A DNA stretch of 64,000 bases from Candidatus Omnitrophota bacterium (GTDB lineage: Bacteria; Omnitrophota; Gorgyraeia; JABMRN01; RBG-13-46-9): assembly GCA_020346285.1 (NCBI GenBank), contig CP070780.1, positions 1,113,021 to 1,177,020 of the forward strand, written 5' to 3'. The notes under the pieces were generated by a model that searched no databases, was not told the DNA's origin, and was given only the letters and a program-made list of their open reading frames with translations. Shown piece after piece: positions 13,276 through 43,383 of this stretch (its first letter is position 1; each line of letters begins with the position of its first letter). The translations under genes and the position numbers were made by a program.

Positions 13276-13290
13276 TTGATAGGATATAAA

Positions 13291-16005: not shown

Positions 16006-17004
16006 ATGGACTTGAGAAAAAAGAAAGTACTTGTAACGGGTTCTGAAGGATTTATAGGAAGCCATCTTGTCGAGAAGCTTTTGGAGGCGGGATGCGATGT
16101 CAGGACGTTTGTTTATTATAATTTTTCCAATTCCTGGGGTTGGCTGGATACCTTTTCAAAGGGTAAGTTGAATAAAATCGAAATTATTACAGGGAATATA
16201 AGAGACCCCAATAATGTCCTAGAGGCCGTAAAAGGGGTAGACGTTATATTTCATCTTGCTGCGCTGATAGGGATTCCGTTTAGTTATCGCTCTCCGGAGA
16301 GTTATGTTGATACAAATATAAAAGGCACCCTTAACATAATGAAGGCAGCGGCGGATTCAGGAGTTGAAAAAATTCTGGTTGCTTCGACATCGGAAGTATA
16401 TGGAAGCGCCAGATATGTCCCCATAGACGAAGAACACCCAAGGCAGGGGCAGTCCCCTTATTCGGCTACAAAAATAGGGGCGGATTATATAGCGCAATCC
16501 TTCCATAGGAGTTTCGGTTTGCCTGTTGTAATTGCCAGGCCTTTTAATACCTACGGGCCGAGGCAGTCTGCAAGAGCGATTATACCGACAATAATAACGC
16601 AGCTTTTATCGGGAAAAAACCGGGTAAAACTCGGCGCATTGGACCCTACGAGAGATTTTATCTTTGTGAAGGATGTGGCTGGTGCAATGGTTGAAATAGC
16701 AAAATCCGACAAGACAACTGGCGAGGAAATAAACATCGCAAGCCAAACCGAGATATCAATAAGGCACCTTGCGCGCAAACTTATAAATATGATTAACCCC
16801 GAAAGTAAGCTGGTAAAAGATGCAGCAAGGTTAAGACCGGAAAATAGCGAGGTAAAGCAGCTTCTGGGCAGCAATAAAAAAATAATGAAGCTGACAAACT
16901 GGAAAACGACATATAATCTGGATGAAGGTTTGAAGGAAACGGTCGAATGGTTTAAAAACAAAGAAAATTTAAAATTGTATAAGTCGGACATTTATAATGT
17001 GTAA
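16006..17004 (+). CDS. NAD-dependent sugar epimerase/4,6-dehydratase (extended SDR)
   Basis: KVLVTGSEGFIGSHLVEKLLEAGCDVR is the Rossmann motif. YSATKIGADY is the YxxxK catalytic motif. ARPFNTYGPRQ is typical of RmlB/GalE-like enzymes. Confidence 0.85.
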   Translation: MDLRKKKVLVTGSEGFIGSHLVEKLLEAGCDVRTFVYYNFSNSWGWLDTFSKGKLNKIEIITGNIRDPNNVLEAVKGVDVIFHLAALIGIPFSYRSPESYVDTNIKGTLNIMKAAADSGVEKILVASTSEVYGSARYVPIDEEHPRQGQSPYSATKIGADYIAQSFHRSFGLPVVIARPFNTYGPRQSARAIIPTIITQLLSGKNRVKLGALDPTRDFIFVKDVAGAMVEIAKSDKTTGEEINIASQTEISIRHLARKLINMINPESKLVKDAARLRPENSEVKQLLGSNKKIMKLTNWKTTYNLDEGLKETVEWFKNKENLKLYKSDIYNV

Positions 17005-19276: not shown

Positions 19277-19363
19277 AGGGTAAGGCATGAGTTTGATATA
19301 AGAATGTTTGCGGATACCTCAAAATATATAACAGGCCACAATCTTGTTGTAGATGGTGGTTGA
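19277..19363 (+). pseudogene. relic of the C-terminus of a short-chain dehydrogenase (SDR) gene
   Basis: The intergenic frame reads ...MFADTSKYITGHNLVVDGG* and ends at TGA 19361-19363. This is the canonical SDR C-terminal motif (YITGq.l.VDGG), with no upstream body. Confidence 0.5.
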
Positions 19364-22549: not shown

Positions 22550-22590
22550 AAAGCAGAGATTTTTAATTGAAAAATTGGAGGGAAAAGTAT

Positions 22591-23562: not shown

Positions 23563-25762
23563 AAAAAAAATAAAGATAATCACGACACTAGGACCATCGA
23601 CGAACACCGAGAAGGATTTAAGAAACATAAAGGACAAAGGCGTTGATTTTGTACGAATCAATATGTCCCACTCCAATCTCAACGATTTAAAATATTTCAT
23701 AGATATTTCAAAGAAGATAGACATACCTTTTATCCTGGATACAGAGGGCTCGCAAATAAGGGCAGTTCAACTTGGCAGGGAAAAAATCGAATTTAAGGAA
23801 GGGGATATAATAAAAATTTATAATCGAACCATAGCAGAAAACAGGGAAAAGATATGCCTACAGCCGGGGTCTATTGTAGGGCAGTTGAAGAAAGGAGATC
23901 TGATATTCGTTGATTTTAATACGTTGGTCCTTAGGGTATCAGATATTTCTATGATTACCGACGGCTATATTTCCGCGATAGTTGTTACCAACGGAATGCT
24001 CGGAAACAACAAATCTGCTGTTATTGTTTCGGGAGAACAAAAACACTTTGGATTGCCCGTTTTAACCGAAAAAGACAGAAAATCTATTCAATTGGCTTTG
24101 AAAGAAGGGATAGGGCATATTGCCGTTTCTTTTGTAAGAAGGGGGAGGGACCTTGATGAGGTAAGAAAAACGACAAATAACACAATGCGTATCATCGCAA
24201 AAATAGAATCAAAAGAATCTTTGGAAAATATAGATGAAATAATTGAAAAAACAGACGCACTTTTGATTGACAGAGGAGATCTTGGTAAAGAGATTCCGAT
24301 TGAAAGAATACCCTTTATCCAGAAGGCTGTATTAAAAAAAGCGCACGAAAGACAAAAGCCGGTATTTATCGCAACAAACCTTCTCGAATCTATGGTTGAG
24401 AAGAAAAAGCCTACAAGGGCGGAAGTCAATGATGTTATAAATACCATTTTGGACGGGGCAGATGGCTTGGTTTTATCAGCCGAAACCGCTATCGGAAAAC
24501 ACCCCATGGGATGCATCAATATACTGAACAGGCTTATTAAATATTCAGATTCCGCAAGAAATCTTAACTATGTTAGTCGTTTTTCCGATTTTAGCACTGT
24601 TTCATTAATAAAACCGCATGGAGGCAGATTAATCGAAAGATTCGCCGATAAATTACCCGGCGATTCAGATAAATTGGTAAAAATAAAACTATCCGAAGAA
24701 CAGCAAATGGATGTTGAGCAGATTGCTGTCGGGGCATTTAGCCCTTTGGAAGGCTTTATGTGCAGAAATGATTTTCAGGGTGTCCTCGACAATATGCGGC
24801 TTGTAAGCGGGGTTGTATGGCCGATTCCAATCGTGCTTGATATTTCAAAAGAAGAGGCGAAAAAGATTTCTATCGATAATGAGGTAGCCTTAATCGGTGA
24901 TAAAGACGAAATTATGGCCATCCTTCATGTAAGGGATAAATACGATTTTGACAAAAAAGAGATAATAAATAAGTTATACTGCACGGACGACAAGAGGCAT
25001 CCCGGTGTAAAAATGGCAATGAAAATGAAGCCGATCTTAGTGGGCGGCGAAATTGATTTGGTAAAGAGAAGAGAGTCCGAATACAAGGAATATGAGCTTA
25101 CCCCAAGGCAGGTGCGAAAACTGTTCGAAGATCGAAATTGGATGAAGATTGCCGGTTTTCATACAAGAAACGCAATACACAGGGTGCATGAATTTATACA
25201 ATTAAAGGCGTTGGAAAAAGCGCATTGCGATGGGCTATTTATTCACCCTGTTATTGGAAAAAAGAAACAAGGCGATTTTAATATCAAATACATAATAGAG
25301 GCTTATAAAAAAATGATGAAAGATTTTTATCCAAAAGATAGCGTTGTCTTCGCAACATTTTCCACCTTTTCGCGATACGCGGGGCCTAGAGAAGCTATAT
25401 TTACTGCCTTATGCAGAAAGAATTTTGGATGCAGCCATTTTATTGTAGGAAGGGACCATACGGGTGTCGCGAATTATTATCACCCAAAGGCATCCCAACA
25501 GATTTTTGACAGATTTCCCGATTTGGAAATAAAACCCATAAAATTTGATAAAGTGTTTTATTCGAATAAACTTAACAAATATATTCATGGAAGTGACATT
25601 TGTAAAGAGGGGGATTTAGGAGAAGTGCATATAAACGCGACACAGGCAAGAAAGATGTTACAGGCCCTTGAAATGCCACCGGATTGGTTTATGAGGCCCG
25701 AAATAGCTTTAATAATTTTAAACGGACTAAAGAACAAGGAGGAAGTGTTTGTCAAAGAGTAA
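23546..25762 (+). CDS. fusion protein: pyruvate-kinase-like N-terminal domain + full ATP sulfurylase (sulfate adenylyltransferase)
   Basis: The first approximately 330 aa match pyruvate kinase blocks (IKIITTLGPST..E.L....KGVDFVRINMSHS; IAKIESKESLENIDEI...DALLIDRGDLG.EIP.ERIP..QK....K......PVFIATNLLESMV..KKPTRAEVNDV.N.ILDGADGLVLSAETA.GKHP). The remaining approximately 400 aa match ATP sulfurylase: the PUA-like segment HGGRLIER...LSEEQ..DVEQIAVGAFSPLEGFM, the HxxH motif GFHTRNAIHRVHE, and VGRDHTGV (GRDHAG). Confidence 0.8.
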   Translation: MDTRNRKKIKIITTLGPSTNTEKDLRNIKDKGVDFVRINMSHSNLNDLKYFIDISKKIDIPFILDTEGSQIRAVQLGREKIEFKEGDIIKIYNRTIAENREKICLQPGSIVGQLKKGDLIFVDFNTLVLRVSDISMITDGYISAIVVTNGMLGNNKSAVIVSGEQKHFGLPVLTEKDRKSIQLALKEGIGHIAVSFVRRGRDLDEVRKTTNNTMRIIAKIESKESLENIDEIIEKTDALLIDRGDLGKEIPIERIPFIQKAVLKKAHERQKPVFIATNLLESMVEKKKPTRAEVNDVINTILDGADGLVLSAETAIGKHPMGCINILNRLIKYSDSARNLNYVSRFSDFSTVSLIKPHGGRLIERFADKLPGDSDKLVKIKLSEEQQMDVEQIAVGAFSPLEGFMCRNDFQGVLDNMRLVSGVVWPIPIVLDISKEEAKKISIDNEVALIGDKDEIMAILHVRDKYDFDKKEIINKLYCTDDKRHPGVKMAMKMKPILVGGEIDLVKRRESEYKEYELTPRQVRKLFEDRNWMKIAGFHTRNAIHRVHEFIQLKALEKAHCDGLFIHPVIGKKKQGDFNIKYIIEAYKKMMKDFYPKDSVVFATFSTFSRYAGPREAIFTALCRKNFGCSHFIVGRDHTGVANYYHPKASQQIFDRFPDLEIKPIKFDKVFYSNKLNKYIHGSDICKEGDLGEVHINATQARKMLQALEMPPDWFMRPEIALIILNGLKNKEEVFVKE

Positions 25763-25779
25763 TAAAAAAATCGAGGGAC

Positions 25780-27519
25780 ATGAAGCTTTCTGATTATATA
25801 ACAAGATTTTTAGCAAAGCATACCAGACATGCATTTGTAGGAACCGGCGGTTGCATCGTTCATGTTCTTGATAGCCTGAATAAGAGTCCGCACATTCACT
25901 TGGTACCTTGCGAAAATGAACAGGGGGCTGCTATCGCGGCAGAGGCCTACTATAGAGTAAAGGGGAAGATAGGCGTTGCGATAGCAACAAGCGGGCCTGG
26001 AATGATTAATTTGATCCAAGGCATCGCATGCGCTTATTTTGATTCTACCCCGTCTTTATATATTTCAGGCGCACCTCCGACCTATCATTTAAAGGGTAAA
26101 CATAAAGTAAGGCAGATGGGTTTTCAAGAAATGGATGTTATAAAAATTGTTAAACCACTAACCAAATATGCTGTATTACTTACGAATCCTAAACGGATCA
26201 GATATGAATTGGAAAAATTAATTTATTCAGCCTTTGAAGGAAGGCCCGGGCCGGTATTATTAGATTTACCTGACGATATTCAGAGGGCGCATATTAATCC
26301 TCAAAAGTTAAAATCTTTTATTCCCAAAAGAAAAACTCCTACATTGAATAAAACGGCAATAAATAAAACAATGGGCCTTATCAAAAAAGCTGCCAGGCCC
26401 GTAATTATTGTCGGCGGCGGAGTAAAGACAAGAGACGTAAGAAAGGAATTAAAAACATTTTTAAACAAAAGCCGGATACCCTTCGCCACGACTTGGGCAA
26501 CCATAGATATGTTTTTGGATAATGAGCCTAATCTTATCGGCAATTTCGGCATATCTGCAAACAGGGCCGGAAATTTTGCCATCCAGAATTGCGATTTGCT
26601 TATTAGCCTGGGTTCTAGGCTGGATACGCATGGAGCAGGAAGCGATGTGGCCCGATTTGCGCCAAAAGCCAAAAAAATAGTTGTTGACATTGACAGAGCA
26701 GAATTAGATAAACATACTAGAATGAAAACAGATTTGAAAATTCATTGCGATTTAAAGACATTTTTAAAAGGCCTCATTAACTCTTCCGAGATAGAAACGA
26801 GGGACCTAAATCAATGGAAAAGAAAAATACAAGAATGGAAAGATAGGTACCCCATATACCTTGAGAAATATTATAAGCAGAAAAACAAAGTTAATCCTTA
26901 TGTTTTTATGAATGAACTGTCTAAGGAAACAAAAGAGGGGGATATCGTTGTTACAGAGACAGGAGCGACTTTGACCTGGACTATGCAGGCTTATAAAATA
27001 AGAACCCGGCAAGCTTTGTTCAGTGCATTCAACCATGCTTCGATGGGATATGCATTGCCCGCTGCTATCGGCGCTCAATATGCCGCGCCCGAAAACCGGG
27101 TAATATGCATCACAGGGGACGGCGGCATACAGATGAATATTCAGGAACTGGAGACAATCGCTTATAATAAGTTACCCATAAAGATTTTCTTAATTAATAA
27201 CAGGGGTTACGGAATGATCAAGCAGACCCAGGATACCTGGCTCGATTCCGTGTATGTGGCCTCGGACCCAAGTTGCGGGTTAGGCTTTCCGGATTTTCAA
27301 AAGGTCGCGAAGGCCTATAAAATAAAAACACTGCAAATCGCAAATCACGGTGAATTAAAAAAGATGATAAGGAAGGTTTTGTCCTATAAGGGGCCGGTTC
27401 TTTGCGACGTTAAATTAAGGCCCGGAGAGAAAATAATCCCTAAATTGGAATTCGGAAGGCCTTTAGAAGATATGTCCCCGTTATTACCGAGAAGCGAGCT
27501 AAAGGCAAATAGGCTTTGA
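25780..27519 (+). CDS. thiamine-diphosphate enzyme, acetolactate-synthase large-subunit-like (YerE-like carboligase candidate)
   Basis: The N-terminal Pyr domain reads GAAIAAEAYYRVKGKIGVAIATSGPGMINLIQGIACAYFDSTPSLYISG. There is a central domain and a C-terminal PP domain (ITGDGGIQMNIQELET). No small subunit is present. I prefer the ATG at 25780. Confidence 0.85.
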   Translation: MKLSDYITRFLAKHTRHAFVGTGGCIVHVLDSLNKSPHIHLVPCENEQGAAIAAEAYYRVKGKIGVAIATSGPGMINLIQGIACAYFDSTPSLYISGAPPTYHLKGKHKVRQMGFQEMDVIKIVKPLTKYAVLLTNPKRIRYELEKLIYSAFEGRPGPVLLDLPDDIQRAHINPQKLKSFIPKRKTPTLNKTAINKTMGLIKKAARPVIIVGGGVKTRDVRKELKTFLNKSRIPFATTWATIDMFLDNEPNLIGNFGISANRAGNFAIQNCDLLISLGSRLDTHGAGSDVARFAPKAKKIVVDIDRAELDKHTRMKTDLKIHCDLKTFLKGLINSSEIETRDLNQWKRKIQEWKDRYPIYLEKYYKQKNKVNPYVFMNELSKETKEGDIVVTETGATLTWTMQAYKIRTRQALFSAFNHASMGYALPAAIGAQYAAPENRVICITGDGGIQMNIQELETIAYNKLPIKIFLINNRGYGMIKQTQDTWLDSVYVASDPSCGLGFPDFQKVAKAYKIKTLQIANHGELKKMIRKVLSYKGPVLCDVKLRPGEKIIPKLEFGRPLEDMSPLLPRSELKANRL

Positions 27520-27542: not shown

Positions 27543-28214
27543 ATGAGTAGAGATTTAATTATAGCGGCTAAATGCGCCCCCCGGGAAGGGCATTTACGGG
27601 ATATTAAAAAAGCAGGATTGCAAGCAGTAGAGCTATATCTCTCGGAAGAGATTATGGAAAATCTGCCTAAGGTCATTGGACTGTGTAAAAAATTTCCATT
27701 TAGATATGCCGTTCACGCCCCTAATGCCGTATATAATCCGCGTAAATTAAGAAAATTGACAGAAGCGATCAATGCCGAAATAGCCGTTTTTCATAATGTT
27801 TATTGGGAGGATGAATGGAAGAGGGTCGCTAAAGCTTTTAAAGGCGTCAAGACTAAACTTTGCGTTGAAAATACATCTTCCACCCATGACTCGGTGAAAT
27901 TTATGAGAAGATATGGGTGGGGTAGGGCCCTGGATTTGGAACACGCGCAAATGGGATCTGCCGGTGTCTATGAAGAAGAGTTTATTACTGTTATGAAAGA
28001 GGCTGCCCATATCCACTTAACCGGTTACACCCATGGTTCGCAATTATGGCACACGCATATCCATCATTCACCGAGGCATAATTCATATTTATTGGATTTA
28101 TTAAGAAAAGCAAGATATTCAGGTTTTGTTGTCTCCGAAGCAAAAAAGTCACTCCAGACTTACGCAGAGTTTAAAAAGTTGAAAGAGTTTTATCAAAAAT
28201 GGAGAAATAAGTGA
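27543..28214 (+). CDS. xylose-isomerase-like TIM-barrel protein (sugar phosphate isomerase/epimerase family)
   Basis: 223 aa. The AVHAPN, ALDLEHAQ and HIHLTGY...HTHIHH segments resemble the metal-binding His/Glu/Asp pattern of the AP_endonuc_2/xylose-isomerase-like fold. This is a moderate-confidence call. Confidence 0.4.
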   Translation: MSRDLIIAAKCAPREGHLRDIKKAGLQAVELYLSEEIMENLPKVIGLCKKFPFRYAVHAPNAVYNPRKLRKLTEAINAEIAVFHNVYWEDEWKRVAKAFKGVKTKLCVENTSSTHDSVKFMRRYGWGRALDLEHAQMGSAGVYEEEFITVMKEAAHIHLTGYTHGSQLWHTHIHHSPRHNSYLLDLLRKARYSGFVVSEAKKSLQTYAEFKKLKEFYQKWRNK

Positions 28215-29059
28215 AGGTTCTCCTTACGGGGGTCACGGGCTTTATCGGCAGTTATTTTGTTTCTCAATGGAAAAATAACCCTTATGAGATAATTGGCATT
28301 GCCAGGCGTAATGTAAATCCTGATTTGCAGATACCGGTTGTGTATGCTGACCTGGCAGAGGGCGTTTCGTTAAAAGAGCCGGTAGATGTTATTGTCCATG
28401 CAGCAACTCAAGCATACGGACCAGACGTTCCGGCAGAGGCTTACATTCACAGTAATGTCGAAGGAATGCAGAAGCTTATTCAATATGCGCGGGATTTTAA
28501 TGTGCGAAAGTTCATCTATCTATCCAGCATGTCAATCTACGGAAAAATATCCGGTAATGTCGCAGACGAAAATACCCCCATTGTAAATCCCGGTATATAC
28601 GGTTTGAGCAAATATATGGGAGAATTGCTTCTTCGTGATGAAGCAGGGTGGCTAAATTCTGTGGTCTTACGTTTACCGGGCATTTTGGGTAAAAGCGCTA
28701 AAATTTGCTGGCTGGCCAAGGCGGCTAAAAAAATCAAGAGTGGCCAAGAGGTGTGGATATACAATCCGCAGTCGCCTTTTAACGCCACGATTCACGTCGC
28801 AGACCTCGAACGCTTTATTTCTCAGCTTATCGTTACAGAATTTAGCGGTTTTGAGATTGTTACGCTTGGATGCCGCCAGCCTATTACAATACGAGAGACG
28901 GCGGATTCTTTAAAAAAATATTTAAATTCAACCTCCAGGATACGGGTGAAAGACGCCAAGAAGAAGTGTTTCATTATTTCCACGGACAAGGCACGCAGAA
29001 TGAAATATAATCCCAGAACTGTTCGGGAAACTTTACGTGCTTATAGTAAGGAATGTTAA
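28211..29059 (+). CDS. NAD-dependent epimerase/dehydratase (extended SDR)
   Basis: MKVLLTGVTGFIGSYFVSQW is the Rossmann motif. YGLSKYMGE is the YxxxK motif. Confidence 0.8.
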   Translation: MKVLLTGVTGFIGSYFVSQWKNNPYEIIGIARRNVNPDLQIPVVYADLAEGVSLKEPVDVIVHAATQAYGPDVPAEAYIHSNVEGMQKLIQYARDFNVRKFIYLSSMSIYGKISGNVADENTPIVNPGIYGLSKYMGELLLRDEAGWLNSVVLRLPGILGKSAKICWLAKAAKKIKSGQEVWIYNPQSPFNATIHVADLERFISQLIVTEFSGFEIVTLGCRQPITIRETADSLKKYLNSTSRIRVKDAKKKCFIISTDKARRMKYNPRTVRETLRAYSKEC

Positions 29060-29072
29060 GAGGGGGTTTAAT

Positions 29073-29759
29073 ATGCGAGAATTTAATGCGTTAAAGGGTT
29101 ATCCGCAACCGAAAGGGCCGCGTTATGTCGGAGCTGACATCAGAACAATTAAGAGCAGAATTATAGCTTCGTATCGCGATGAACGGTATTATGACGGAGA
29201 CCGCAACCACGGTTATGGAGGGTTTAAATATGACGGCCGATGGAAGAAAATAGCACAATCAATGTTTAAGGATTATGGGTTAACCGAGAACTCGGCCTTA
29301 CTCCAGATAGGGTGTGAAAAAGGGTTTCTCCTGCATGATTTTCATGAGCATTTCCCGAATATGAAAATTAGAGGAGCCGAAATGTCCGATTACGCTATTT
29401 CGCATTCCATGCCGTCGGTAAAAAAATGGATTGTAAAGATGGACAATTATACCAAGCTTCCCTTCGAAAGCGGAGAATTTGATTTTGTCATTGCTATAGG
29501 GGTAGTTTATGCCTTAACCTTAAGGGATGCTATATCTTGTCTTCGCGAAATTCAGAGAGTAGGAAAGGGCAAAAGCTTTATAACCCTGGGCGCTTATAAA
29601 GACGAACGGGGAGAAAAGCTTTTTAAGAGTTGGACGGTATTAGGTGCCACCATACTTCATGTAAATGAGTGGCCCGAGGTTTTAAAGGAAGCCCGTTACA
29701 CGGGCGATTATCACTTTATGACCGACGAATATCTAAATTTGGCAGAGAAAAACGGATGA
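29073..29759 (+). CDS. class I SAM-dependent methyltransferase
   Basis: Motif I is LLQIGCEKGFLLHDF. Motif II-like is EFDFVIAIGVVYAL. I prefer the ATG at 29073 after a GAGGGGG RBS. Confidence 0.7.
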   Translation: MREFNALKGYPQPKGPRYVGADIRTIKSRIIASYRDERYYDGDRNHGYGGFKYDGRWKKIAQSMFKDYGLTENSALLQIGCEKGFLLHDFHEHFPNMKIRGAEMSDYAISHSMPSVKKWIVKMDNYTKLPFESGEFDFVIAIGVVYALTLRDAISCLREIQRVGKGKSFITLGAYKDERGEKLFKSWTVLGATILHVNEWPEVLKEARYTGDYHFMTDEYLNLAEKNG

Positions 29760-30769
29760 AAAATCAGGATTTTTTAATAAAAATATTGGATAATAATAAA
29801 ATATTAAACCTAGAGTTTTATAAGAAATTATTTTTAATCAGAAGGAGTGAAGAGAAGATTATCGAGCTTTATCCTGAAAATGAAATGAGAATGCCAATGC
29901 ATATGTCTATGGGAGGAGAGGCAATAGCAGTTGGGGTTTGTCATGCTTTAGGAATAAAAGGCCAGGTTTTTGGAAGCTACAGATCCCATGCTATATATTT
30001 AGCTAAGACGCAAGATACGAATAATTTTTTTGCTGAGATATATGGAAAAACCACATCTTCATTAAAAGGAAAATGCGGCTCTATGCATTTGTGCGCACCT
30101 GATTTTGGGTTTATGGGAGCTTCAGCAATTGTAGCAAGTATAATTCCTGTAGCCTGTGGAACAGCTTTTGCAAATAAGAGAAAAAATAATGGTAAAATTG
30201 TTAGCGTATTTTTTGGAGATGGGGCCGTTGATGAGGGTAATTTTTGGGAGAGCTTGAATGTTGCCTCTCTTATGAAACTGCCGATTTTATTTGTCTGTGA
30301 AGATAACGCTCTTGCGGTTCATACTCCAAGGCACCAAAGGCAGGGTTATGATTCTATCGTTAGTATTGTCTCTAAGTTTAACTGTAATGTTCTTGAAGAG
30401 AGCACTACCGATACAGAAGTTATTTATAGAAAAACTTGCCAGGCTATTGAGTTAATTAGAACAACCCAGATGCCCTGTTTTTTGTATTTAAGATATTATA
30501 GGTACTTGGAGCATGTTGGTACTAAGGAAGATTTTGATGCCGGCTACCGCTCAAAAGAAGAATTTGAAAAATGGCATAAAAAAGACCCTGTAAATTTACA
30601 GAGGAAAAAGCTTTTAAGATTTGGGATAGAAGAAGAACAGATAAGAAAACTTGAAGTAGAGATAGAAGGTCGCATTGAGAACAGTATAAGGTTAGCCCAA
30701 AAAGCACCCTTCACTGAAATTAGCGAATTACACAGAGATGTCTTTTATGAAGAAAATAAGAAAGATTAG
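29756..30769 (+). CDS. thiamine-diphosphate-dependent dehydrogenase E1 component alpha-subunit homologue
   Basis: MHMSMGGEAIAVGVCHALGIKGQVFGSYRSHAIYLAK...; FFGDGAVDEGNFWESLNVASLMKLPILFVCEDNALAV is the TPP-binding GDG...N motif. The start overlaps the methyltransferase stop (ATGA). Confidence 0.8.
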   Translation: MKNQDFLIKILDNNKILNLEFYKKLFLIRRSEEKIIELYPENEMRMPMHMSMGGEAIAVGVCHALGIKGQVFGSYRSHAIYLAKTQDTNNFFAEIYGKTTSSLKGKCGSMHLCAPDFGFMGASAIVASIIPVACGTAFANKRKNNGKIVSVFFGDGAVDEGNFWESLNVASLMKLPILFVCEDNALAVHTPRHQRQGYDSIVSIVSKFNCNVLEESTTDTEVIYRKTCQAIELIRTTQMPCFLYLRYYRYLEHVGTKEDFDAGYRSKEEFEKWHKKDPVNLQRKKLLRFGIEEEQIRKLEVEIEGRIENSIRLAQKAPFTEISELHRDVFYEENKKD

Positions 30770-31799
30770 TTATTGTCAGGCATTGAATGAAGCAATGCGG
30801 CAGGAAATGGAAAGAGATCCAAATATATTTGTATATGGACTAGGTGTGCCTGACCATAAAAGAGTATTCACAACTACTGCGGGGTTGGTGGAGAAATTTG
30901 GTAAGGAAAGATGTTTTGATACCCCACTGTCTGAAGATACTATGACCGGGTTCGGATTGGGCGCGGCCATTAGCGGAATGAGGCCTATTCATATCCATAT
31001 GCGAGTTGATTTTCTTCTTCTAGCAGTAAATCAGCTTGCTAATATGGTTTCTAATTACAGATATGCAACAGCGGGGAAATTAAGAGTCCCTTTGCTAATA
31101 AGGGCTGTTGTGGGCAGGGGACGGGGACAATCTTTTCAGCATAGTAAGACTATGCATTCTATCTTTGCGCACATCCCTGGATTAAAAGTTGTTTTGCCCA
31201 CTACTCCCAGGGATGCCAAAGGGCTACTTATAGCAGCTATCAGGGATGAGAATCCAGTAATTTTTATAGAACATAGATGGTTATATTTTGCGGTTGACGA
31301 AGTTCCAGAACTACCATATACCATCCCTTTGGAAGAAGCTAATATTCTGCGTTCAGGCAGAGATGTTACAGTGGTGGCAACTTCGTGGATGAATGTAGAG
31401 GCCTTAAAAGCTGCACAGGTTCTTGAACGAAAGCACAAGATAAGCGTAGAAGTGATCGACGCCAGAATAGTAGCTCCCTTCAATGATAAGCTTATTGTTC
31501 ACTCCGTCAATAAGACAGGACATTGTATTGTGGCGGACAATGATTGGCTTGATTGCGGATTTAGTGCAGAAGTAGCTGCTCGAGTTTCAGAGAAGTGTTT
31601 CAGTCAATTAAAATCCCCTGTGCAGCGAATAGGATTTGCTCCCACTCCCTGCCCTTGCACAAAGTCTTTGGAGAATTGTTTTTATCCAAACGCAATTGAC
31701 ATTATAAAAACTATAGAATCAAAGTTAAACTTGGAAGAGGCAGATTTGTCTAATGAAGACTTTTATGGCTTTGAAAATAAGTTCAACGGTCCTTTTTAA
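30738..31799 (+). CDS. thiamine-diphosphate-dependent dehydrogenase E1 component beta-subunit homologue
   Basis: Transketolase-like Pyr domain (GFGLGAAISGMRPIHIHMRVDFLLLAVNQLANMVSNYRYATAGKLRVPLLIRAVVGRGRGQSFQHSKTMHSIFAHIPGLKVVLPTTPRDAKGLLIAAIRDENPVIFIEH) plus a C-terminal domain. Confidence 0.8.
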   Translation: MSFMKKIRKISYCQALNEAMRQEMERDPNIFVYGLGVPDHKRVFTTTAGLVEKFGKERCFDTPLSEDTMTGFGLGAAISGMRPIHIHMRVDFLLLAVNQLANMVSNYRYATAGKLRVPLLIRAVVGRGRGQSFQHSKTMHSIFAHIPGLKVVLPTTPRDAKGLLIAAIRDENPVIFIEHRWLYFAVDEVPELPYTIPLEEANILRSGRDVTVVATSWMNVEALKAAQVLERKHKISVEVIDARIVAPFNDKLIVHSVNKTGHCIVADNDWLDCGFSAEVAARVSEKCFSQLKSPVQRIGFAPTPCPCTKSLENCFYPNAIDIIKTIESKLNLEEADLSNEDFYGFENKFNGPF

Positions 31800-31832
31800 G
31801 TGGTAGTTGCGTTATAAAATTTTGAGGTGGTT

Positions 31833-32612
31833 ATGAATTTTGGTATTAGCGATAAAAGGGTTTTAGTCGTAGGAACCGGCAAGGGCATCGGGGGGGCTGT
31901 TGCAAGGGCTTTTGCGGCTGAAGGTTGCAGGGTGTCAATGGTAGCCCGTAATCCAGACACGCTAAAACAGCTTCTTGAGGAGATGGGTGGTCTTGAGAAA
32001 GGCCACAGGTTCCTGACGGCAGATTTGCTGGAAGCTGGTGCACCGACAAGAGTTGTAAAAGAGTTTTCGAGCGCGGATGGCCCATTTGATATAGTCGTCC
32101 ATAATGTAGGGGGCGCAATAACGCTTAAAGATCCTCTTGGTCCGGTTGAAGACTGGATGCGCGTATGGCGGTTTAATGTTGGCATCGCCATTGAGATGAA
32201 TGCCCTTTTGGTGCCACCCATGCGGAAACAAGGCTGGGGGCGGGTCATTCACATTTCGTCAATTTCCGCAGAGTTAGGAGAGCCGCGGCTGCATCCTTAT
32301 GGGGGTGCGCTTTCCTATGCGGCGGCAAAAGCATATCTCAACGTATATGTAAGGGGATTAGGCCGCGAAGTAGCAAAGGAAAATGTTATAGTTACTGCAT
32401 TGATGCCCGGACCGATTCTTTCCGAAGGAAAATACGTGGATAAGCTCCGTAAGACGAATCCTGAACTTATGAATAACTTCTTACGTCAACACTGCCCGAT
32501 CGGACGTTTCGGGATGCCTGAAGAGATTGCACCTTTCGCAGTCTTCATGGCCTCGGAGCAAGCCTCTTATGCCAGTGGTTCCATTGTACCGATCGACGGT
32601 GGAAGAATATGA
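31833..32612 (+). CDS. short-chain dehydrogenase/reductase (classical SDR)
   Basis: KRVLVVGTGKGIGGAVARAFAAEGCRVSMVARN is the TGxxxGxG motif. YGGALSYAAAKAY is the YxxxK motif. The C-terminus is YASGSIVPIDGG. Local GC is higher than in the flanks. I prefer the ATG at 31833 (GAGGTGG RBS). Confidence 0.85.
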   Translation: MNFGISDKRVLVVGTGKGIGGAVARAFAAEGCRVSMVARNPDTLKQLLEEMGGLEKGHRFLTADLLEAGAPTRVVKEFSSADGPFDIVVHNVGGAITLKDPLGPVEDWMRVWRFNVGIAIEMNALLVPPMRKQGWGRVIHISSISAELGEPRLHPYGGALSYAAAKAYLNVYVRGLGREVAKENVIVTALMPGPILSEGKYVDKLRKTNPELMNNFLRQHCPIGRFGMPEEIAPFAVFMASEQASYASGSIVPIDGGRI

Positions 32613-32630: not shown

Positions 32631-33848
32631 ATGGGAATATTGTCAAAAATCACTGATCTACTTTTAGGACAGCCGATGTTCAATCTTCTCCAGAAAGCTC
32701 AAAAAATGGAGATATCCGGAAGAAGAATCATTCACTATGAGATAGGCGATCCGAGCTTTGACTCTCCTCCCCATGCTATTGAAGCGGCAAAAGAAGCTCT
32801 CGACGCAAACTTAACGCATTATACAAGTTCCATGGGGCTTTTCGAATATAGAGAAGCGATTAGAGAATACACAAAGGCCAACTCTGGTTTTAAACCCTCC
32901 ATAGATCAGGTTCTGGCCTGCCCTGCTAATGCTGTGATTGATTTTGTTATACGCTGCACAGCTAATCCTGGCGAGGAGGTTATTTATCCCGACCCAGGTT
33001 TTCCTACTTATTATTCTGCTATTACTTATAATAAGGCGATACCAGTAGGTATTTTATTAAAGGAAGAGAATATGTTTCGGATGAGCCCTCGAGATGTCCA
33101 CGATAAAATAACCGATAAGACTAGATTAATTATCATTAACAGCCCCCAAAATCCTACAGGTGCTGTTTTGAAAGAAGAGGAGATTCTTGAATTTGCCAGA
33201 ATCGCGGAGGAACATGATATTTACCTCTTAAGCGATGAGGTCTATGCAAAGCTTACTTATGATAAAGCTCATTATTCGCCGAGCGTAAGAGATCAATGTA
33301 AGGCAAGAACCATTATTTTAAACAGTCTTTCGAAACAATATTCGATGGCGGGCTGGCGCTTGGGTTATGCTATCGGCCCTGAGAAACTAATAGAAAAAAT
33401 GGGATTACTTCTGCAAACAATAATCTCGTGTCTACCGGCCTTTACACAACTTGGAGGCAGGGCTGCGCTTCTGGGCAATCAAGAGTTTATGGATGCCAGG
33501 ATTGCCATGTTGAGAGAAAGGCGCGATATATTAACCGAAGGGCTTAATAAACTTCCCGGGGTCTCATGCGTTGTACCGGATGGGGCATTTTATGTTTTCG
33601 CCAATATAAGTAAAACTGGGATAACTTCAGAGGAATATTCAGAGAAACTTTTGCAAGAGACCGGTGTCTGTGTACTAGCCGGTAATTATTTTGGAAAAGG
33701 CGGAAGTGGATACATTAGATTATGTTATGCCAGTTCGCCGATCAGCCTTATTGAAGAAACGCTTGAGAAGATGAAAGAATTCCATGAAAAAATTGTTTGT
33801 AATTCTGGATTAGTTTGTTCTGGAGGGGAAAATGCAAAGACTTACTGA
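32631..33848 (+). CDS. class I/II (aspartate-aminotransferase-fold) PLP-dependent aminotransferase
   Basis: IIHYEIGDPSFDSPPHAIEAAKEALDANLTHYTSSMGLFEYREAI...; SLSKQYSMAGWRLGYAIGP is the Lys-containing SxSK..(A/G)..G.R.G motif. Confidence 0.8.
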   Translation: MGILSKITDLLLGQPMFNLLQKAQKMEISGRRIIHYEIGDPSFDSPPHAIEAAKEALDANLTHYTSSMGLFEYREAIREYTKANSGFKPSIDQVLACPANAVIDFVIRCTANPGEEVIYPDPGFPTYYSAITYNKAIPVGILLKEENMFRMSPRDVHDKITDKTRLIIINSPQNPTGAVLKEEEILEFARIAEEHDIYLLSDEVYAKLTYDKAHYSPSVRDQCKARTIILNSLSKQYSMAGWRLGYAIGPEKLIEKMGLLLQTIISCLPAFTQLGGRAALLGNQEFMDARIAMLRERRDILTEGLNKLPGVSCVVPDGAFYVFANISKTGITSEEYSEKLLQETGVCVLAGNYFGKGGSGYIRLCYASSPISLIEETLEKMKEFHEKIVCNSGLVCSGGENAKTY

Positions 33849-35520
33849 TTATATCGCTCAATTTCTTATCGGTCAAGGCGTTAGAGATATTTTTATGCTT
33901 ACGGGCTATGGTGCAATGTATCTCAACGATGCTATTGCCCTATCGGGTATTAACTATTATGCTTCTCGAAATGAAGCAGCAGCCCCTATGATGGCTGAGG
34001 CCTATGCTCGTGTGAAACAATCGTTGGGGGCAGTATGCGTAACAGCAGGCCCGGGAGCAACAAATGCGGTATCAGGCTTAGCGGAGGCTTGGGTTGATTC
34101 AGCTCCGATAATAGTATTTTCAGGACAAGTTACAAGGAGGCACACTACCCATAACGCCAATGTTCCAGGCCTTAGGACTTTTGGAACGGCTGAGATTAAT
34201 ATTGTACCGATTGTAAAAAACCTAACCAAATATGCCGCTGTCATCGACGAACCCACGTCGGTGCGTTATCATCTCGAAAAAGCCGTTTATTATGCTACCA
34301 CAGGTCGTCCCGGCCCGGTATGGCTGGATATTCCATTAGATGTCCAACAGGCATTAATTGATCCAAGCAGTTTAGATGGTTTTATACCGCCTAAAGAACG
34401 ATGGTTTAATACGAATCTGACCGCTGCTACTAATTCTGTTATTAAGTTGCTTTTACGCGCTAAACGCCCTGTCCTTGTATGTGGTCATGGTATTCGCCAG
34501 GGGGGTGCAATTTCTGAGTGGCGGAACTTAGTTGATTTGCTCAATATGCCAGTTATATTTTCACGCTTGGGCCTGGATTTGATGCCACATTCTCACCCGA
34601 ACGTATTTGGAATGGCGGGAATTAAGGGTTCACGTTACTGTAAGTTCCTCATGAATGAGGCGGACTTGGTGATTTCGTTAGGGTCTCGCCTTGCTGTACC
34701 CTTTGTAGGTCATGACTTAGAGGCTTTTGCGCCCGGCGCAAAGATAGTGATGGTAGATATTGATAAAGCTGAGTTAAGCAAGCCAGGCGTCCATATTGAT
34801 TTACCTATTCATGCGGACATAAAACCATTTACCCAGGAATTACTCAAGGCCATTGATAACGAAAAACTACCAGACTGGGGAGGGTGGATTGAGTCTTGTC
34901 GAGAACTCACTCGGAAGTGCCCCATATTATCAGCATCTCAAAAACGAAATCCAATCGACTTATACTATTTTATGTCACGGATTGATGCGCTTTCCCAAAA
35001 ACATCACATTCTGGTGACAGATGCCGGTTCCAATTATTATGTAGGAGGCCAGGTATGGCGATTCGAGAATGCTCGGCGTGAGATTACTTCATCTGCTTAT
35101 GCCGCCATGGGCTTGAGTATTCCACTTGCGATAGGTGCAAGCATCGCAGATAAAAAAAGCCAAGTCCTGGCTATTACAGGAGATGGTTCGTTAGAGTTAA
35201 ATATCCAAGAGCTTAAGACCCTATCCCATTATAATTTGAACATCAAACTGTTTGTTATTAATAACGGCGGCTATGTCTCAATGAGAAATTGGCAGGATAC
35301 TGTCTTTGAGGGGCGCCGTATCGACACGGAAGCAACGACCGGCGCCGGAACTTTAAATCTTAGGAAAGTAGCCGAGGCCTTCAATCTCGATTATTTAAAA
35401 ATTGAGAAACATGAAGAGATCGATGAAAAGTTGAAACAAGTGATGAGCAATGATTCTCCTATATTTGTAGAAGTAATTACTGATTATAACCAGAAAATAT
35501 TAGAGCCTTTCGATAGATAA
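33832..35520 (+). CDS. thiamine-diphosphate enzyme, acetolactate-synthase large-subunit-like (second copy)
   Basis: AAPMMAEAYARVKQSLGAVCVTAGPGATNAVSGLAEAWVDSAPIIVFSGQV; the C-terminal PP domain reads ITGDGSLELNIQELKT. It overlaps the upstream aminotransferase by 17 nt. Confidence 0.85.
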   Translation: MQRLTDYIAQFLIGQGVRDIFMLTGYGAMYLNDAIALSGINYYASRNEAAAPMMAEAYARVKQSLGAVCVTAGPGATNAVSGLAEAWVDSAPIIVFSGQVTRRHTTHNANVPGLRTFGTAEINIVPIVKNLTKYAAVIDEPTSVRYHLEKAVYYATTGRPGPVWLDIPLDVQQALIDPSSLDGFIPPKERWFNTNLTAATNSVIKLLLRAKRPVLVCGHGIRQGGAISEWRNLVDLLNMPVIFSRLGLDLMPHSHPNVFGMAGIKGSRYCKFLMNEADLVISLGSRLAVPFVGHDLEAFAPGAKIVMVDIDKAELSKPGVHIDLPIHADIKPFTQELLKAIDNEKLPDWGGWIESCRELTRKCPILSASQKRNPIDLYYFMSRIDALSQKHHILVTDAGSNYYVGGQVWRFENARREITSSAYAAMGLSIPLAIGASIADKKSQVLAITGDGSLELNIQELKTLSHYNLNIKLFVINNGGYVSMRNWQDTVFEGRRIDTEATTGAGTLNLRKVAEAFNLDYLKIEKHEEIDEKLKQVMSNDSPIFVEVITDYNQKILEPFDR

Positions 35521-35540: not shown

Positions 35541-36368
35541 ATGCAAGAAAAAGTGCAAATGCTAAAGAAAAAAGCAAGGTGGGTGCGAACCAAGGTTCTA
35601 AATACCATAGCCAGACTAAGAAAGGGTCATCTCGGAGGTACCTTATCCTGTACGGACCTTTTGGTGGCCTTATATTACGGGAAAATCATGAGATTCGATG
35701 CTGCTAATCCAAATTGGAGCGAAAGAGACAGATTTCTTATAGGGAAAGGGCATGCCCATCTTGCCTTATATTATATATGGACTGACCTCGGATTTTTTGA
35801 TGTTCGCAAATTAGAAGAATATGGAACCGACGGTAGCTCATTAGGTTTTCAACTCGATCGTAACATTCCGGGTTCAGAATATAATACAGGTTCATTAGGA
35901 CATGTGATTGGAATCGGAGCTGGAATGGCATTAGCCGCAAAGATGGATCGCAAGGCCTATAAGACCATTGTTCTTGTCGGTGATGGGGAATGTGATGAAG
36001 GTTCTATCTGGGAAGCGGTCATGTTTGCGAGCCGATATCGATTGAATAATTTAATGACCATTGTTGATAGAAATCAGGCAACAGTCATTGAAAATAGAGT
36101 GGAAGACGATGGTTCCGGGAGATTAGAGGAAAAGTTCAAAATGTGCGGTTGGGAGTCTATAACTATCAACGGGCACTCCTTTGAGCAGATACTGTCCGCT
36201 TTCACTGGATTGGAAAAATTCAATAGGCCCCTGGCGATAATTGCCGATACGGTGAAGGGTAAAGGGGCCTCTTTTTTGGAGCAAGGGGCTAAATGGCACC
36301 ATTTGGTTCCTTCTGCAGAAGAATTTGATAGGGTAATTAGGGAGTTTGAATTGGAGGCTGAAACGTGA
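35541..36368 (+). CDS. transketolase, N-terminal (TPP-binding) subunit of a split transketolase
   Basis: HLGGTLSCTDLLVALYY...; GSLGHVIGIGAGMALAAKMDRKAYKTIVLVGDGECDEGSIWEA is the GDG...E TPP motif. It is 275 aa. Confidence 0.85.
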   Translation: MQEKVQMLKKKARWVRTKVLNTIARLRKGHLGGTLSCTDLLVALYYGKIMRFDAANPNWSERDRFLIGKGHAHLALYYIWTDLGFFDVRKLEEYGTDGSSLGFQLDRNIPGSEYNTGSLGHVIGIGAGMALAAKMDRKAYKTIVLVGDGECDEGSIWEAVMFASRYRLNNLMTIVDRNQATVIENRVEDDGSGRLEEKFKMCGWESITINGHSFEQILSAFTGLEKFNRPLAIIADTVKGKGASFLEQGAKWHHLVPSAEEFDRVIREFELEAET

Positions 36369-37300
36369 AAAATGCAATTGATTTTAGAAATGCTTTTTTT
36401 GATAACTTATATGACATAGCTATAAAAAATAAGGAGGTTGTTTTCATAACATCTGATATGCCTGCAGAAAGCCTCGTCAAATACAATAAGGATTTCCCTG
36501 ACCGATTCATTAATAGCAGGGTTGCTGAACAGAACACGGTGAGTGTAGCAGCGGGGCTTGCACTAAGCGGAAAAAAAGTTTTCATTTATGGTATGTTACC
36601 TTTTGTAACAATGCGTTGTTATGAACAGATTAAGGTTGATATTTGTAGTATGAATTTACCCGTTACTCTTATAGGGCTGGGAGCAGGATTATCCTTTGAT
36701 GTGGATGGGCCAACCGCCCATGGAGTTATTGACATTGCTATTATGCGCTCACTACCTGAAATGACCATTCTCAATCCTTCCGACCCTATTACGGCATCTG
36801 CCTTTGCAGAAACTGCATACAGTAGTTGCACTCCCACCTATATTCGGCTGCACAAAGGTAGAACCCCATCTATTTATGATAATGCTACAGATTTCTCAGA
36901 TGGATTCTCTATACTTAAAAATGGCGATGATCTTTGTATTATTACAACAGGGGTCATGCTGCATACTGCTCTTCGCATAAGAGATGAACTAAAAAGGTAT
37001 TCTCTTGATGCGGGTGTTATTGATTTATATCAATTGAAACCAATTAAAGAAGACTTGTTCCTTAAAGCGTTAACTAACCATAAAAAAATAGTGACCATTG
37101 AAGAGCATTCACTTATTGGGGGACTTGGCAGTATCATCAGTGAAATCATAACCGACAATCAGCGGCCGATTTCACTCAAGCGCATTGCACTTAAAGATGA
37201 ACAGTGTTTTCATTATGGTAAGAGAGAGTGGCTACGCGAGGTGTATAAAGTTGATGCAGATAGTATTGTTAAGCAAATTATAGCATGGGAGAAGAAGTAG
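36365..37300 (+). CDS. transketolase, C-terminal (Pyr + C-terminal domain) subunit
   Basis: FITSDMPAESLVKYNKDFPDRFINSRVAEQNTVSVAAGLALSGKKVFIYGM... It is 311 aa and overlaps the N-terminal subunit by 4 nt. Confidence 0.85.
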   Translation: MKNAIDFRNAFFDNLYDIAIKNKEVVFITSDMPAESLVKYNKDFPDRFINSRVAEQNTVSVAAGLALSGKKVFIYGMLPFVTMRCYEQIKVDICSMNLPVTLIGLGAGLSFDVDGPTAHGVIDIAIMRSLPEMTILNPSDPITASAFAETAYSSCTPTYIRLHKGRTPSIYDNATDFSDGFSILKNGDDLCIITTGVMLHTALRIRDELKRYSLDAGVIDLYQLKPIKEDLFLKALTNHKKIVTIEEHSLIGGLGSIISEIITDNQRPISLKRIALKDEQCFHYGKREWLREVYKVDADSIVKQIIAWEKK

Positions 37301-42474: not shown

Positions 42475-43230
42475 ATGAAAGACAAAATGAGTGATTTTAG
42501 GAGCAGCAGCCCACAGGAGCTTGCTATCAGAAGAAAATTCTTGGAACATTATAAAAAAAGTCCCATTCCTGATGATCAGCTCTTTGTAAACCTCGGGCTT
42601 TTTCTGAACACCAAAAATTTATCTCGAATCTTATTTATGAATGATATATACAAACAAATTATTGATGTTCAAGGGATTATTGTTGAATTTGGTACAAGAT
42701 GGGGTCCAAACCTGTCACTTTTTGCTGCTTTGCGAGGAATTTATGAGCCATATAACATACAGAGAAAAATAGTTGGATTTGATACGTTTGAAGGATTTCC
42801 AGGCCTATCAGAAAAAGACAGCTCTAGTGATATGATGAAAATAGGTAATCTTTCCTGTTCAGAAGGATATGTTGATTATCTTACAAAGGTGATGGAATTC
42901 CAAGAAGCTGATAATCCTGTCTCACACATCAAGAAATTTGAGATAAGAAAGGGAGATGCAAACATTGAAGTGGTGAAATATCTTGAAGAAAACCCGGAAA
43001 CGATTATTGCTTTGGCTTTTTTTGATTTCGACATTTACGAACCGACTAAAAATTGTTTGCAAGCTATAAAACCCCACTTGGTAAAAGGGAGTTTATTGTG
43101 TTTTGATGAATTGAATGCCCATAGTGCCCCGGGAGAAACTATAGCATTGAAAGAGGTATACGGACTTAATAATATAAAGTTACGACGGCCCCGCTACACC
43201 ACGAGAGTATCGTACTTTATTATAGAATAA
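42475..43230 (+). CDS. TylF/MycF-family (macrocin-O-methyltransferase-like) SAM-dependent sugar O-methyltransferase
   Basis: QGIIVEFGTRWGPNLSLFAAL...KIVGFDTFEGFPG matches the TylF family core (G.(I/V)VE.G(V/T).(R/W)G.S......GRtvw.yDsFeGlP). Confidence 0.75.
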   Translation: MKDKMSDFRSSSPQELAIRRKFLEHYKKSPIPDDQLFVNLGLFLNTKNLSRILFMNDIYKQIIDVQGIIVEFGTRWGPNLSLFAALRGIYEPYNIQRKIVGFDTFEGFPGLSEKDSSSDMMKIGNLSCSEGYVDYLTKVMEFQEADNPVSHIKKFEIRKGDANIEVVKYLEENPETIIALAFFDFDIYEPTKNCLQAIKPHLVKGSLLCFDELNAHSAPGETIALKEVYGLNNIKLRRPRYTTRVSYFIIE

Positions 43231-43238
43231 AGCGTTAC

Positions 43239-43332
43239 TATAACCCTGGGCGCTTACAGGGACGAACGGAGAGAAAGGAAACGATTGTCACTTTATGACC
43301 GCCGAATATCTAAATTTGAAGGAGAAAAACAG
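43239..43332 (+). pseudogene. relic of a methyltransferase 3' end (homologous to the end of the gene at 29073-29759), internally deleted
   Basis: 43239-43278 matches 29579-29618, and 43288-43332 matches 29711-29755, both at high identity. About 90 nt of intervening sequence is missing and no upstream gene body is present. Confidence 0.6.
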
Positions 43333-43383
43333 ATGAAAAGCCGGGATTTTTTACGAAAAATATTGGCAATGTTGACCATTCCC
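43333..43383 (+). repeat. 51-nt direct repeat (right copy), part of the functional gene start
   Basis: ATGAAAAGCCGGGATTTTTTACGAAAAATATTGGCAATGTTGACCATTCCC is the partner of 42393-42443. A related start (ATGAAAAATCAGGATTTTTTAATAAAAATATTGG) occurs at 29756. Confidence 0.7.

Follow-up and report, generated by a model that had tools for sequence, protein, structure and literature searches.

A pyruvate dehydrogenase E1-like gene pair in a glycan locus of Candidatus Omnitrophota as a candidate two-carbon branching enzyme for nucleotide keto-sugars

The 64-kb stretch of DNA analyzed here (the window; contig CP070780.1 of a Candidatus Omnitrophota metagenome-assembled genome, MAG) contains two adjacent genes for the alpha and beta subunits of a pyruvate dehydrogenase (PDH) E1-type enzyme. 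The pair probably encodes an E2-independent alpha2beta2 thiamine diphosphate (ThDP) enzyme that adds a two-carbon (C2) branch to a nucleotide keto-sugar destined for a cell-surface glycan. The donor (pyruvate), the acceptor, the position of the branch and the order of tailoring are what we infer. An initial annotation of this DNA had likened the pair to AviB1/AviB2, and this reading is supported by the lack of genes for a lipoyl acyltransferase (E2) or a dihydrolipoamide dehydrogenase (E3) in the window, by scores below the curated PDH E1 cut-offs, by the sugar locus, and, among the orthologues, by coupling to a dehydratase and by the reductases that accompany it. Enzymes of this kind, termed alpha-KADH2, are already known; the widespread cell-envelope glycan context is previously undescribed. 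What makes the pair interesting is chiefly how broadly distributed and well conserved its family is, and that the family occurs together with two further classes of ThDP carboligases in surface-glycan clusters of organisms that are largely uncultured.

The two subunit genes are:
29756..30769, plus strand: E1 alpha, ThDP/Mg-binding, 337 aa (Pfam E1_dh, 3.2e-48 over residues 24-322)
30747..31799, plus strand: E1 beta, 350 aa, or 353 aa from the ATG at 30738 (Transket_pyr, 2.4e-32; Transketolase_C, 3.8e-30)

The two genes overlap each other and are placed between a methyltransferase gene, whose stop codon overlaps the E1 alpha start (ATGA), and a short-chain dehydrogenase/reductase (SDR) gene downstream. 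The open reading frames (ORFs) and their Pfam domains bear out this placement, which had been noted before. The overlap of 32 nt reported with it holds for the longest E1 beta ORF (ATG 30738), but shrinks to 23 nt for the ATG at 30747. A public gene call, made on a metagenomic contig of identical sequence, favors this second start, as do the N-termini across 68 family members. E1 alpha is identical to a 337-aa database protein (P0001; Candidatus Omnitrophota MAG). The ThDP motif of E1 alpha is formed by GDG154-156 and, after 27 residues, N184; both this motif and His253 are conserved. In E1 beta, Glu66 and His135 are invariant among the 68 family members. We take His253 to occupy the position of the histidine preceding phosphorylation site 1 in human PDH E1 alpha, and His135 that of His128 in G. 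stearothermophilus E1 beta. The retained catalytic set (alpha His253, beta His135 and beta Glu66) does not discriminate between PDH-type and branching enzymes.

The closest relatives of known structure in the PDB are human PDH E1 alpha (6e-35) for the alpha subunit and G. stearothermophilus PDH E1 beta (6.5e-71) for the beta subunit. Compared with a canonical Rhizobium E1, the alpha subunit is only 35% and the beta subunit 39% identical. Both subunits score below curated thresholds, E1 alpha with 249.4 bits against the PDH-E1 model TIGR03182 (cut-off 393.85) and E1 beta with 295.5 bits against NF006667 (cut-off 321). Several signature motifs of E1 alpha are altered compared to PDH (PMHMSMGEEA, CEDNGxAVHT and YYRYLEHVG). 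E1 beta carries a C-terminal tail, DLSxExFYxxExKFxGPF (18-22 aa; residues 336-353, window positions 31746-31799), that runs past the end of PDH E1 beta. F349 and P352 of the tail are invariant, while G351 is present in 67 and F353 in 66 of the 68 sequences.

The FxGP[FY] end is also found in the E1 beta of an Azospirillum lipopolysaccharide (LPS) cluster, in a divergent pair from Saganbacteria, in a pair from a biosynthetic gene cluster on a Streptomyces plasmid, and in 7 of 15 fused alpha-beta relatives in a representative library. It is absent from G. stearothermophilus E1 beta, the E1 beta of the canonical Rhizobium operon, a fused E1 from Sulfitobacter that has an E2 next to it, two pairs with stand-alone lipoyl proteins, an Azospirillum brasilense pair located by a TRAP transporter, and a Streptomyces chartreusis fused protein. 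In this small sample, the end is missing from all examined E1 betas with E2 or lipoyl partners, but also from two E2-less ones. The tail may be a marker of an E2-independent clade.

Pfam searches of all 56 main window ORFs of at least 150 aa returned no lipoyl, 2-oxoacid_dh, E3_binding or Pyr_redox family. The positive control for tblastn was a canonical operon (E1a-E1b-E2-LpdA) carried on a Rhizobium plasmid: its E2 and LpdA gave no matches at E<=1e-3 in the window and 86 loci (1.5 Mb), while its E1a and E1b gave 95 and 110 matches in the same 1.5 Mb and both match the window. A relaxed lipoyl-lysine motif scan returned nothing in plausible window ORFs; it was used together with tblastn in place of a hand-written lipoyl regular expression, which was dropped because a genuine E2 control escaped it. 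No E2 or E3 gene was found within ~10 kb of the family orthologues in the fetched loci. The initial annotation was thus correct that the window has no lipoyl-E2 or E3, as seen by Pfam, by tblastn with genuine E2 and LpdA, and by the motif scan. The pair itself is not a single-chain TPP_enzyme_N/M/C protein; two neighboring window genes (starting at 25684 and 33832) are of that acetolactate synthase (ALS) type.

The annotation "transketolase C-terminal domain-containing protein" was tried as a marker of E2-less pairs, with mixed results: the cases so annotated include two with stand-alone lipoyl proteins, one beside a TRAP transporter and one fused alpha-beta protein. On plasmids of Croceicoccus (L093 3977-6253) and Sphingobium (L094 4037-6220), a stand-alone E1 alpha/beta pair of a different kind precedes a gene for a small lipoyl-domain protein that stands on its own. 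These pairs adjoin an AMP-binding enzyme, and no E2 catalytic domain or E3 is encoded nearby.

The gene context of the family was assembled from precomputed annotations of six contigs and from our own ORF calling and clustering of 82 loci. Counts are taken from the 66 loci where the ORF caller recovered E1 beta; in some further loci, the E1 genes were cut off at contig ends or masked by ORFs that overlap them. The recurring order is a nucleoside diphosphate (NDP)-sugar 4,6-dehydratase-like gene, E1 alpha, E1 beta, and one of three modules: a class I methyltransferase with a FabG-like SDR, a split transketolase, or an aldo-keto reductase (AKR) with a TylF-like protein. These are followed by an Fcl-like reductase, an RmlC-like epimerase and a second Fcl-like reductase, and the cassette ends with a GHMP kinase, a nucleotidyltransferase, a HAD phosphatase and a SIS isomerase, which we take to be the GDP-D-glycero-D-manno-heptose pathway. 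AglB/STT3 oligosaccharyltransferases, Wzm/Wzt transporters and glycosyltransferases are encoded nearby. In one example (L080), the order is dehydratase, E1 alpha, E1 beta, ALS-type enzyme, the two transketolase halves and AKR. The cassette consists almost wholly of nucleotide-sugar enzymes and contains no acyl-carrier or ligase genes.

Of the 66 loci, 47 have a GMD/RmlB-like 4,6-dehydratase no more than five genes ahead of E1 beta. In 38 of 64 loci, E1 alpha directly follows a 4,6-dehydratase-like gene, and in L002 these two genes overlap. Within six genes downstream of E1 beta, an AKR or FabG-like SDR is present in 33 of 59 loci and a transketolase half in 22 of 59; heptose-pathway genes occur in 39 of 66. 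The dehydratase representative matches GDP-mannose and dTDP-glucose 4,6-dehydratases best (181 and 177 bits, respectively) and has SSSEVYG and YxxxK motifs of the dehydratase type. 4,6-Dehydratases yield NDP-4-keto-6-deoxy sugars. Such sugars are the acceptor class of the known ThDP branching enzymes (PMC9306805, PMC12247030). The tight translational coupling of dehydratase and E1 alpha, usual among the orthologues, points to a keto-sugar substrate, and a coupled dehydratase-E1a-E1b with a ketoreductase is the order expected for making a keto-sugar, acetyl branching and reduction.

The family is large and tightly conserved across phyla. Among 5.8 billion proteins, 2441 homologues were detected at E<=1e-20, and the best 120 of the 2441 are all 67-74% identical. 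A second scan, with each GTDB species represented by one genome, gave 130 relatives, the best 80 of which are 53-71% identical and lie in sugar-nucleotide clusters. These 80 include Dehalococcoidia, Omnitrophota, Planctomycetota, many members of the candidate phyla radiation (CPR/Patescibacteria), Nitrospira, Elusimicrobia, Desulfobacterota, Beta- and Gammaproteobacteria, Bacteroidetes, Heliobacterium mobile DSM 6151 (L063) and a Magnetococcales isolate, as well as Nanoarchaeota and Thermoplasmata among the archaea. The proteins of Nanoarchaeota, Thermoplasmata and many CPR bacteria (L048, L067, L085 and CPR loci such as L021, L022, L030 and L038) are 55-63% identical to the Omnitrophota protein. 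Archaeal and CPR sequences are interleaved with those of other phyla in a quick neighbor-joining tree, indicating horizontal spread of the cassette.

A search of 50%-identity representatives gave a continuous range from 56% down to 32% identity, and all 579 plasmid-borne homologues are at most 40% identical. The next-closest cultured homologue is found on an Azospirillum plasmid (40%/47%), in an LPS cluster with the order NAD oxidoreductase-E1a-E1b-DegT. Some family members and homologues are named "pyruvate/acetoin dehydrogenase alpha" in source databases. Our literature search found no description of an E1 pair in heptose or polysaccharide clusters. The Streptomyces plasmid pair of pSGRIFU1 was considered as a sugar-branching example and rejected, its context being a condensation-domain protein and an acyl carrier protein with no sugar genes. 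A Saganbacteria locus (L032) has two E1a-E1b pairs in one sugar cluster, one belonging to the conserved family and one divergent; the beta subunit of the latter is 42% identical to that of the window and ends in FKGPF.

Around 120 clusters with alpha-KADH2 enzymes are known, all forming C2 branches at C-3 or C-4 (PMC12247030). The branch is at C-3 in aldgamycin and kibdelomycin and at C-4 in paulomycin and trioxacarcin (PMC12247030). The precedent originally invoked for the window pair, attachment of the branch to a 4-keto-sugar in avilamycin and aldgamycin, therefore needs qualification: the aldgamycin branch is at C-3 (PMC12247030) and the role of AviB1/B2 is termed "proposed". KbDH-alpha/beta joins pyruvate to keto-sugar analogues in vitro according to the section of the review that cites Krug 2024 (PMC12247030). 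In the paulomycin pathway, knockout of pau11 abolishes paulomycins (PMC4425429), and the AKR Pau7 reduces the acetyl branch installed by Pau11/Pau12 (PMC4753412).

Like AviB1/B2, Pau11/12, AlmDI/DII and KbDH-alpha/beta, the window genes are an adjacent E1 alpha/beta pair without E2/E3 among deoxysugar or nucleotide-sugar genes, with ThDP motifs intact and a reductase at hand (the AKR Pau7 in paulomycin, an SDR or AKR here). However, the characterized or proposed alpha-KADH2 enzymes are from actinomycete antibiotic clusters (PMC12247030), whereas the window pair is in a cell-envelope glycan locus of Omnitrophota. Unlike the alpha-KADH2 members, it also belongs to a 53-74% identical family that spans many phyla and archaea and usually lies by GDP-heptose-type genes. 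According to a review, branching by alpha-KADH2 enzymes and transketolases belongs to secondary metabolites, and that by YerE-type enzymes to LPS (PMC12247030). YerE (yersiniose, erwiniose and caryophyllose) resembles the proposed activity in its ThDP-dependent acyl-anion addition to an NDP-4-keto-3,6-dideoxy sugar, followed by the NAD(P)H reductase YerF, for a surface polysaccharide; in contrast, it is a single-chain ALS-type flavoprotein and not an E1 alpha/beta heteromer.

With the PDH E1 alpha2beta2 enzymes (G. stearothermophilus 1W85/3DUF; human 1NI4), the pair shares fold and subunit organization, as predicted from sequence, and the ThDP and His/Glu residues, but differs in having no E2/E3, scores below the cut-offs, altered alpha motifs and the extra FxGPF tail of the beta subunit. 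AcoA/AcoB (acetoin:DCPIP oxidoreductase) are also E1 alpha/beta subunits and can carboligate onto ketones in vitro (PMC12247030). Their physiological setting is acetoin catabolism with a lipoyl E2 and an E3, while no such partners or catabolic context accompany the window pair. Finally, split transketolases are proposed for hydroxyacetyl branching in miharamycin and amipurimycin, and a split transketolase lies near the E1 pair in about one-third of the family loci. Split branching transketolases have been reported only from Streptomyces and are uncharacterized in vitro (PMC12247030). By analogy, the split transketolase beside the E1 pair, although a different enzyme, suggests that the pathway includes another branching activity of the C2 type.

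The window has ~40% GC and a near-unbroken run of plus-strand genes from 5726 to 63316. This ~58-kb one-strand run of the Candidatus Omnitrophota MAG is, by its predicted products, a glycan/nonulosonic-acid locus. It encodes a LegB-like dehydratase, a LegC (431 bits; cut-off 420, passed) and a CBS-nucleotidyltransferase, in addition to PseG-like and PseF-like proteins, two NeuB synthases and one NeuC-type epimerase. The window also contains several DegT aminotransferases, glycosyltransferases, an ABC exporter, two sulfotransferases and about ten radical S-adenosylmethionine (SAM) enzymes. The genes that bear on the E1 pair are:
16006..17004, plus strand: LegB-like NDP-sugar 4,6-dehydratase (TIGR04180, 471.9 bits, cut-off 475; TSE and YxxxK motifs)
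25684-27519: second ALS/YerE-type ThDP enzyme (ALS-type architecture)
28211..29059, plus strand: extended-SDR protein of NAD epimerase/reductase type, 282 aa (Pfam Epimerase, 3.6e-30)
29037..29759, plus strand: class I SAM methyltransferase, coupled to E1 alpha (Methyltransf_11/25/31)
31827 (or 31833)..32612, plus strand: classical SDR (adh_short_C2, 5.7e-36)
32631..33848, plus strand: class I/II aminotransferase (Aminotran_1_2, 2.2e-64), overlapping the ALS-like gene by 17 nt
33832..35520, plus strand: ALS/YerE-type ThDP enzyme (TPP_enzyme_N/M/C; below acetolactate synthase cut-offs)
35541..37300, plus strand: split transketolase, N half 35541-36368 and C half 36365-37300 (NCBIfam transketolase halves)
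42475..43230, plus strand: TylF-like methyltransferase-fold protein, 251 aa (weak TylF/Methyltransf_24 matches)

Four ThDP systems (the E1 pair, two ALS-type enzymes and the split transketolase) and a class I/II aminotransferase are thus encoded within 12 kb. At a threshold of at least 45% identity, window orthologues in the family loci number 63 for E1 alpha, 67 for E1 beta, and 15 and 14 for the transketolase halves, which there adjoin the E1 pair. Orthologues of the ALS-type enzyme at 33832-35520 (49-60% identical) adjoin the E1 pair in seven loci, and the TylF-like protein has 60-67% identical orthologues in 20 family loci across phyla. The aminotransferase-ALS pair recurs in Nealsonbacteria (L038 11032-13952; 68% and 54% identical). 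Based on this conserved pairing, the aminotransferase more likely supplies a 2-oxo acid donor to the ALS/YerE-type enzyme than tailors the E1 product.

The FabG-like SDR found after the E1 pair in 21 family loci shares 31-33% identity with the window SDR, which is a candidate ketoreductase for the acetyl branch. The extended SDR at 28211-29059 has SMSIYG and YxxxK motifs without the acid residue of the dehydratases, and is not an orthologue of the upstream dehydratase of the family. Four extended-SDR genes were examined for the dehydratase motif, and the LegB-like gene alone is of that type. In the legionaminic acid pathway, the LegB product is a GDP-linked 4-keto-6-deoxy-N-acetylhexosamine. 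The LegB-like gene is a candidate source of a 4-keto-6-deoxy acceptor.

In the proposed mechanism, ThDP bound at the alpha/beta interface would decarboxylate pyruvate to the hydroxyethyl-ThDP carbanion, with the participation of the alpha GDG...N motif, beta Glu66, alpha His253 and beta His135. Instead of being handed to a lipoyl arm, the carbanion would attack a nucleotide-activated keto-sugar at its carbonyl (a 4-keto-6-deoxy sugar is the most likely acceptor), giving a tertiary alcohol that bears an acetyl branch (net +C2H4O). The SDR at 31827-32612 would most likely reduce the branch ketone to 1-hydroxyethyl, and a methyltransferase could modify the branched product further, before the sugar enters the cell-surface glycan of the locus.

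Several observations lower our confidence in C2 branching by this pair. At 45% identity or above, the window lacks orthologues of the dehydratase, Fcl-like, RmlC-like and heptose-pathway genes that are typical of the family. The nearest 4,6-dehydratase, the LegB-like gene, is 13 kb upstream and has an aminotransferase partner of its own. Since the dehydratase is not adjacent, the acceptor is uncertain. The His pair used by PDH in reductive acetylation is retained, so that the active site alone is compatible with a lipoyl partner, and the E2/E3 search of the source organism covers the 64-kb window. Likeness to the AviB1/B2-type enzymes is drawn from gene architecture and context rather than from their sequences. 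The known sugar-branching members are only ~37% identical to each other (PMC4425429), and hence define no family signature. The density of ThDP systems around the pair, discussed below, belongs on the same side.

That density, with an aminotransferase in the same 12 kb, is one reason to ask whether the pair could be a ThDP carboligase or decarboxylase of the glycan pathway whose chemistry is not C2 branching of a ring ketone, but, for example, formation of an acyloin or 2-oxo-acid-derived substituent on a nonulosonic acid, or a DXS-like C2 extension of a sugar aldehyde. The co-conservation of the ALS-like enzyme, the transketolase and the TylF-like protein with the E1 pair points the same way, as do the non-adjacent dehydratase and the Leg/Pse-type pathways of the locus, the products of which commonly carry unusual N-acyl groups. 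We nevertheless regard such chemistry as rather improbable, if less so for this atypical window, since the family cassette is made up nearly completely of nucleotide-sugar enzymes without acyl-carrier or ligase genes, the coupling of dehydratase and E1 alpha points to a keto-sugar, and a change of substrate class is unlikely among ~70% identical orthologues. Much less probable still is a pair whose decarboxylation substrate, in place of pyruvate, would be a 2-keto acid of a sugar, such as a nonulosonic or ulosonic acid from the NeuB-type synthases. The two NeuB-family synthases of the window do make 2-keto-3-deoxy acids, and E1 enzymes act on 2-oxo acids; however, this proposal draws its support from co-location alone, NeuB is rare in the orthologous cassettes (a homologue in four loci, at 30-36% identity), nonulosonic acids are mainly pyranose hemiketals, and we know of no precedent for E1-type decarboxylation of them.

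An E1 of the usual kind, from a pyruvate, acetoin or branched-chain 2-oxoacid dehydrogenase whose E2 and E3 are encoded elsewhere in the genome, would account for the best PDB matches of both subunits, which are PDH and branched-chain 2-oxoacid dehydrogenase E1 subunits (alpha 6e-35, beta 6.5e-71), for the catalytic His pair and for the database names of the homologues, and it would be compatible with a search of the source organism limited to 64 kb. This explanation seems very unlikely to us. It is at odds with the scores of both subunits, which are under curated equivalog or subfamily cut-offs, with the lack of E2/E3 in the window or the 86 fetched loci, and with a context that is always glycan biosynthesis. 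CPR bacteria and Nanoarchaeota, which generally have no 2-oxoacid dehydrogenase complexes, both carry the family, and the conserved C-terminal tail of E1 beta is absent from the E2-dependent E1 betas examined.

If C2 branching of keto-sugars is indeed the shared chemistry of the family, E1-type branching would extend from actinomycete antibiotics to primary cell-envelope glycans, and C-acetyl- or hydroxyethyl-branched sugars would be common, though unseen, in the envelopes and N-glycans of many uncultured lineages. Annotations as "pyruvate/acetoin dehydrogenase E1" in the carrier genomes would mislead metabolic reconstructions, and the family would offer a large conserved set of ketone-accepting ThDP carboligases for chiral tertiary alcohols. 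Cultured carriers, such as Heliobacterium mobile DSM 6151, make the idea testable; Azospirillum has a 40% identical relative.

A bolder proposal, which we put forward only tentatively, is that a cassette not described before, and spread by horizontal transfer, is built around this pair, with up to three different ThDP carboligases branching nucleotide sugars for envelope glycans. Such a cassette would comprise the 4,6-dehydratase, E1 alpha/beta, the split transketolase and/or the ALS-type enzyme with its aminotransferase, reductases, methyltransferases and the GDP-heptose genes. Its carriers would include CPR bacteria, DPANN and Thermoplasmata archaea, Omnitrophota, Planctomycetota and Chloroflexota. 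Were it to hold, an unknown class of C-branched higher sugars would be common in uncultured microbes, and the invariant FxGPF end of E1 beta would mark E2-independent E1 enzymes.

Other parts of the window have unusual features. ORFs without a Pfam match (223-656 aa) are located at 13276-14973, 19360-21150, 27543-28214, 43285-44505 and 51158-53128. The 223-aa ORF just 5' of the E1 block resembles, by eye, a TIM barrel of the sugar isomerase/epimerase type, an unsupported impression. The gene at 23546-25762 (plus strand) encodes a 738-aa protein in which pyruvate-kinase barrel, PUA_2 and ATP-sulfurylase domains are fused, and adjoins a sulfotransferase gene (22567-23562); no APS-kinase domain was found among the scanned window ORFs, which makes this sulfate-activation module unusual. 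The second sulfotransferase (61256-62494) is close to the 3' end of the window. By Pfam, one radical-SAM gene is at 1603-3039 on the minus strand, and the others start at 12214, 15015, 21161, 37302, 38376, 41265, 46280, 49656 and 54952. Of these ten, four have SPASM domains, five have B12-binding domains and one is plain, implying extensive C-methylation, epimerization or other radical tailoring in the locus.

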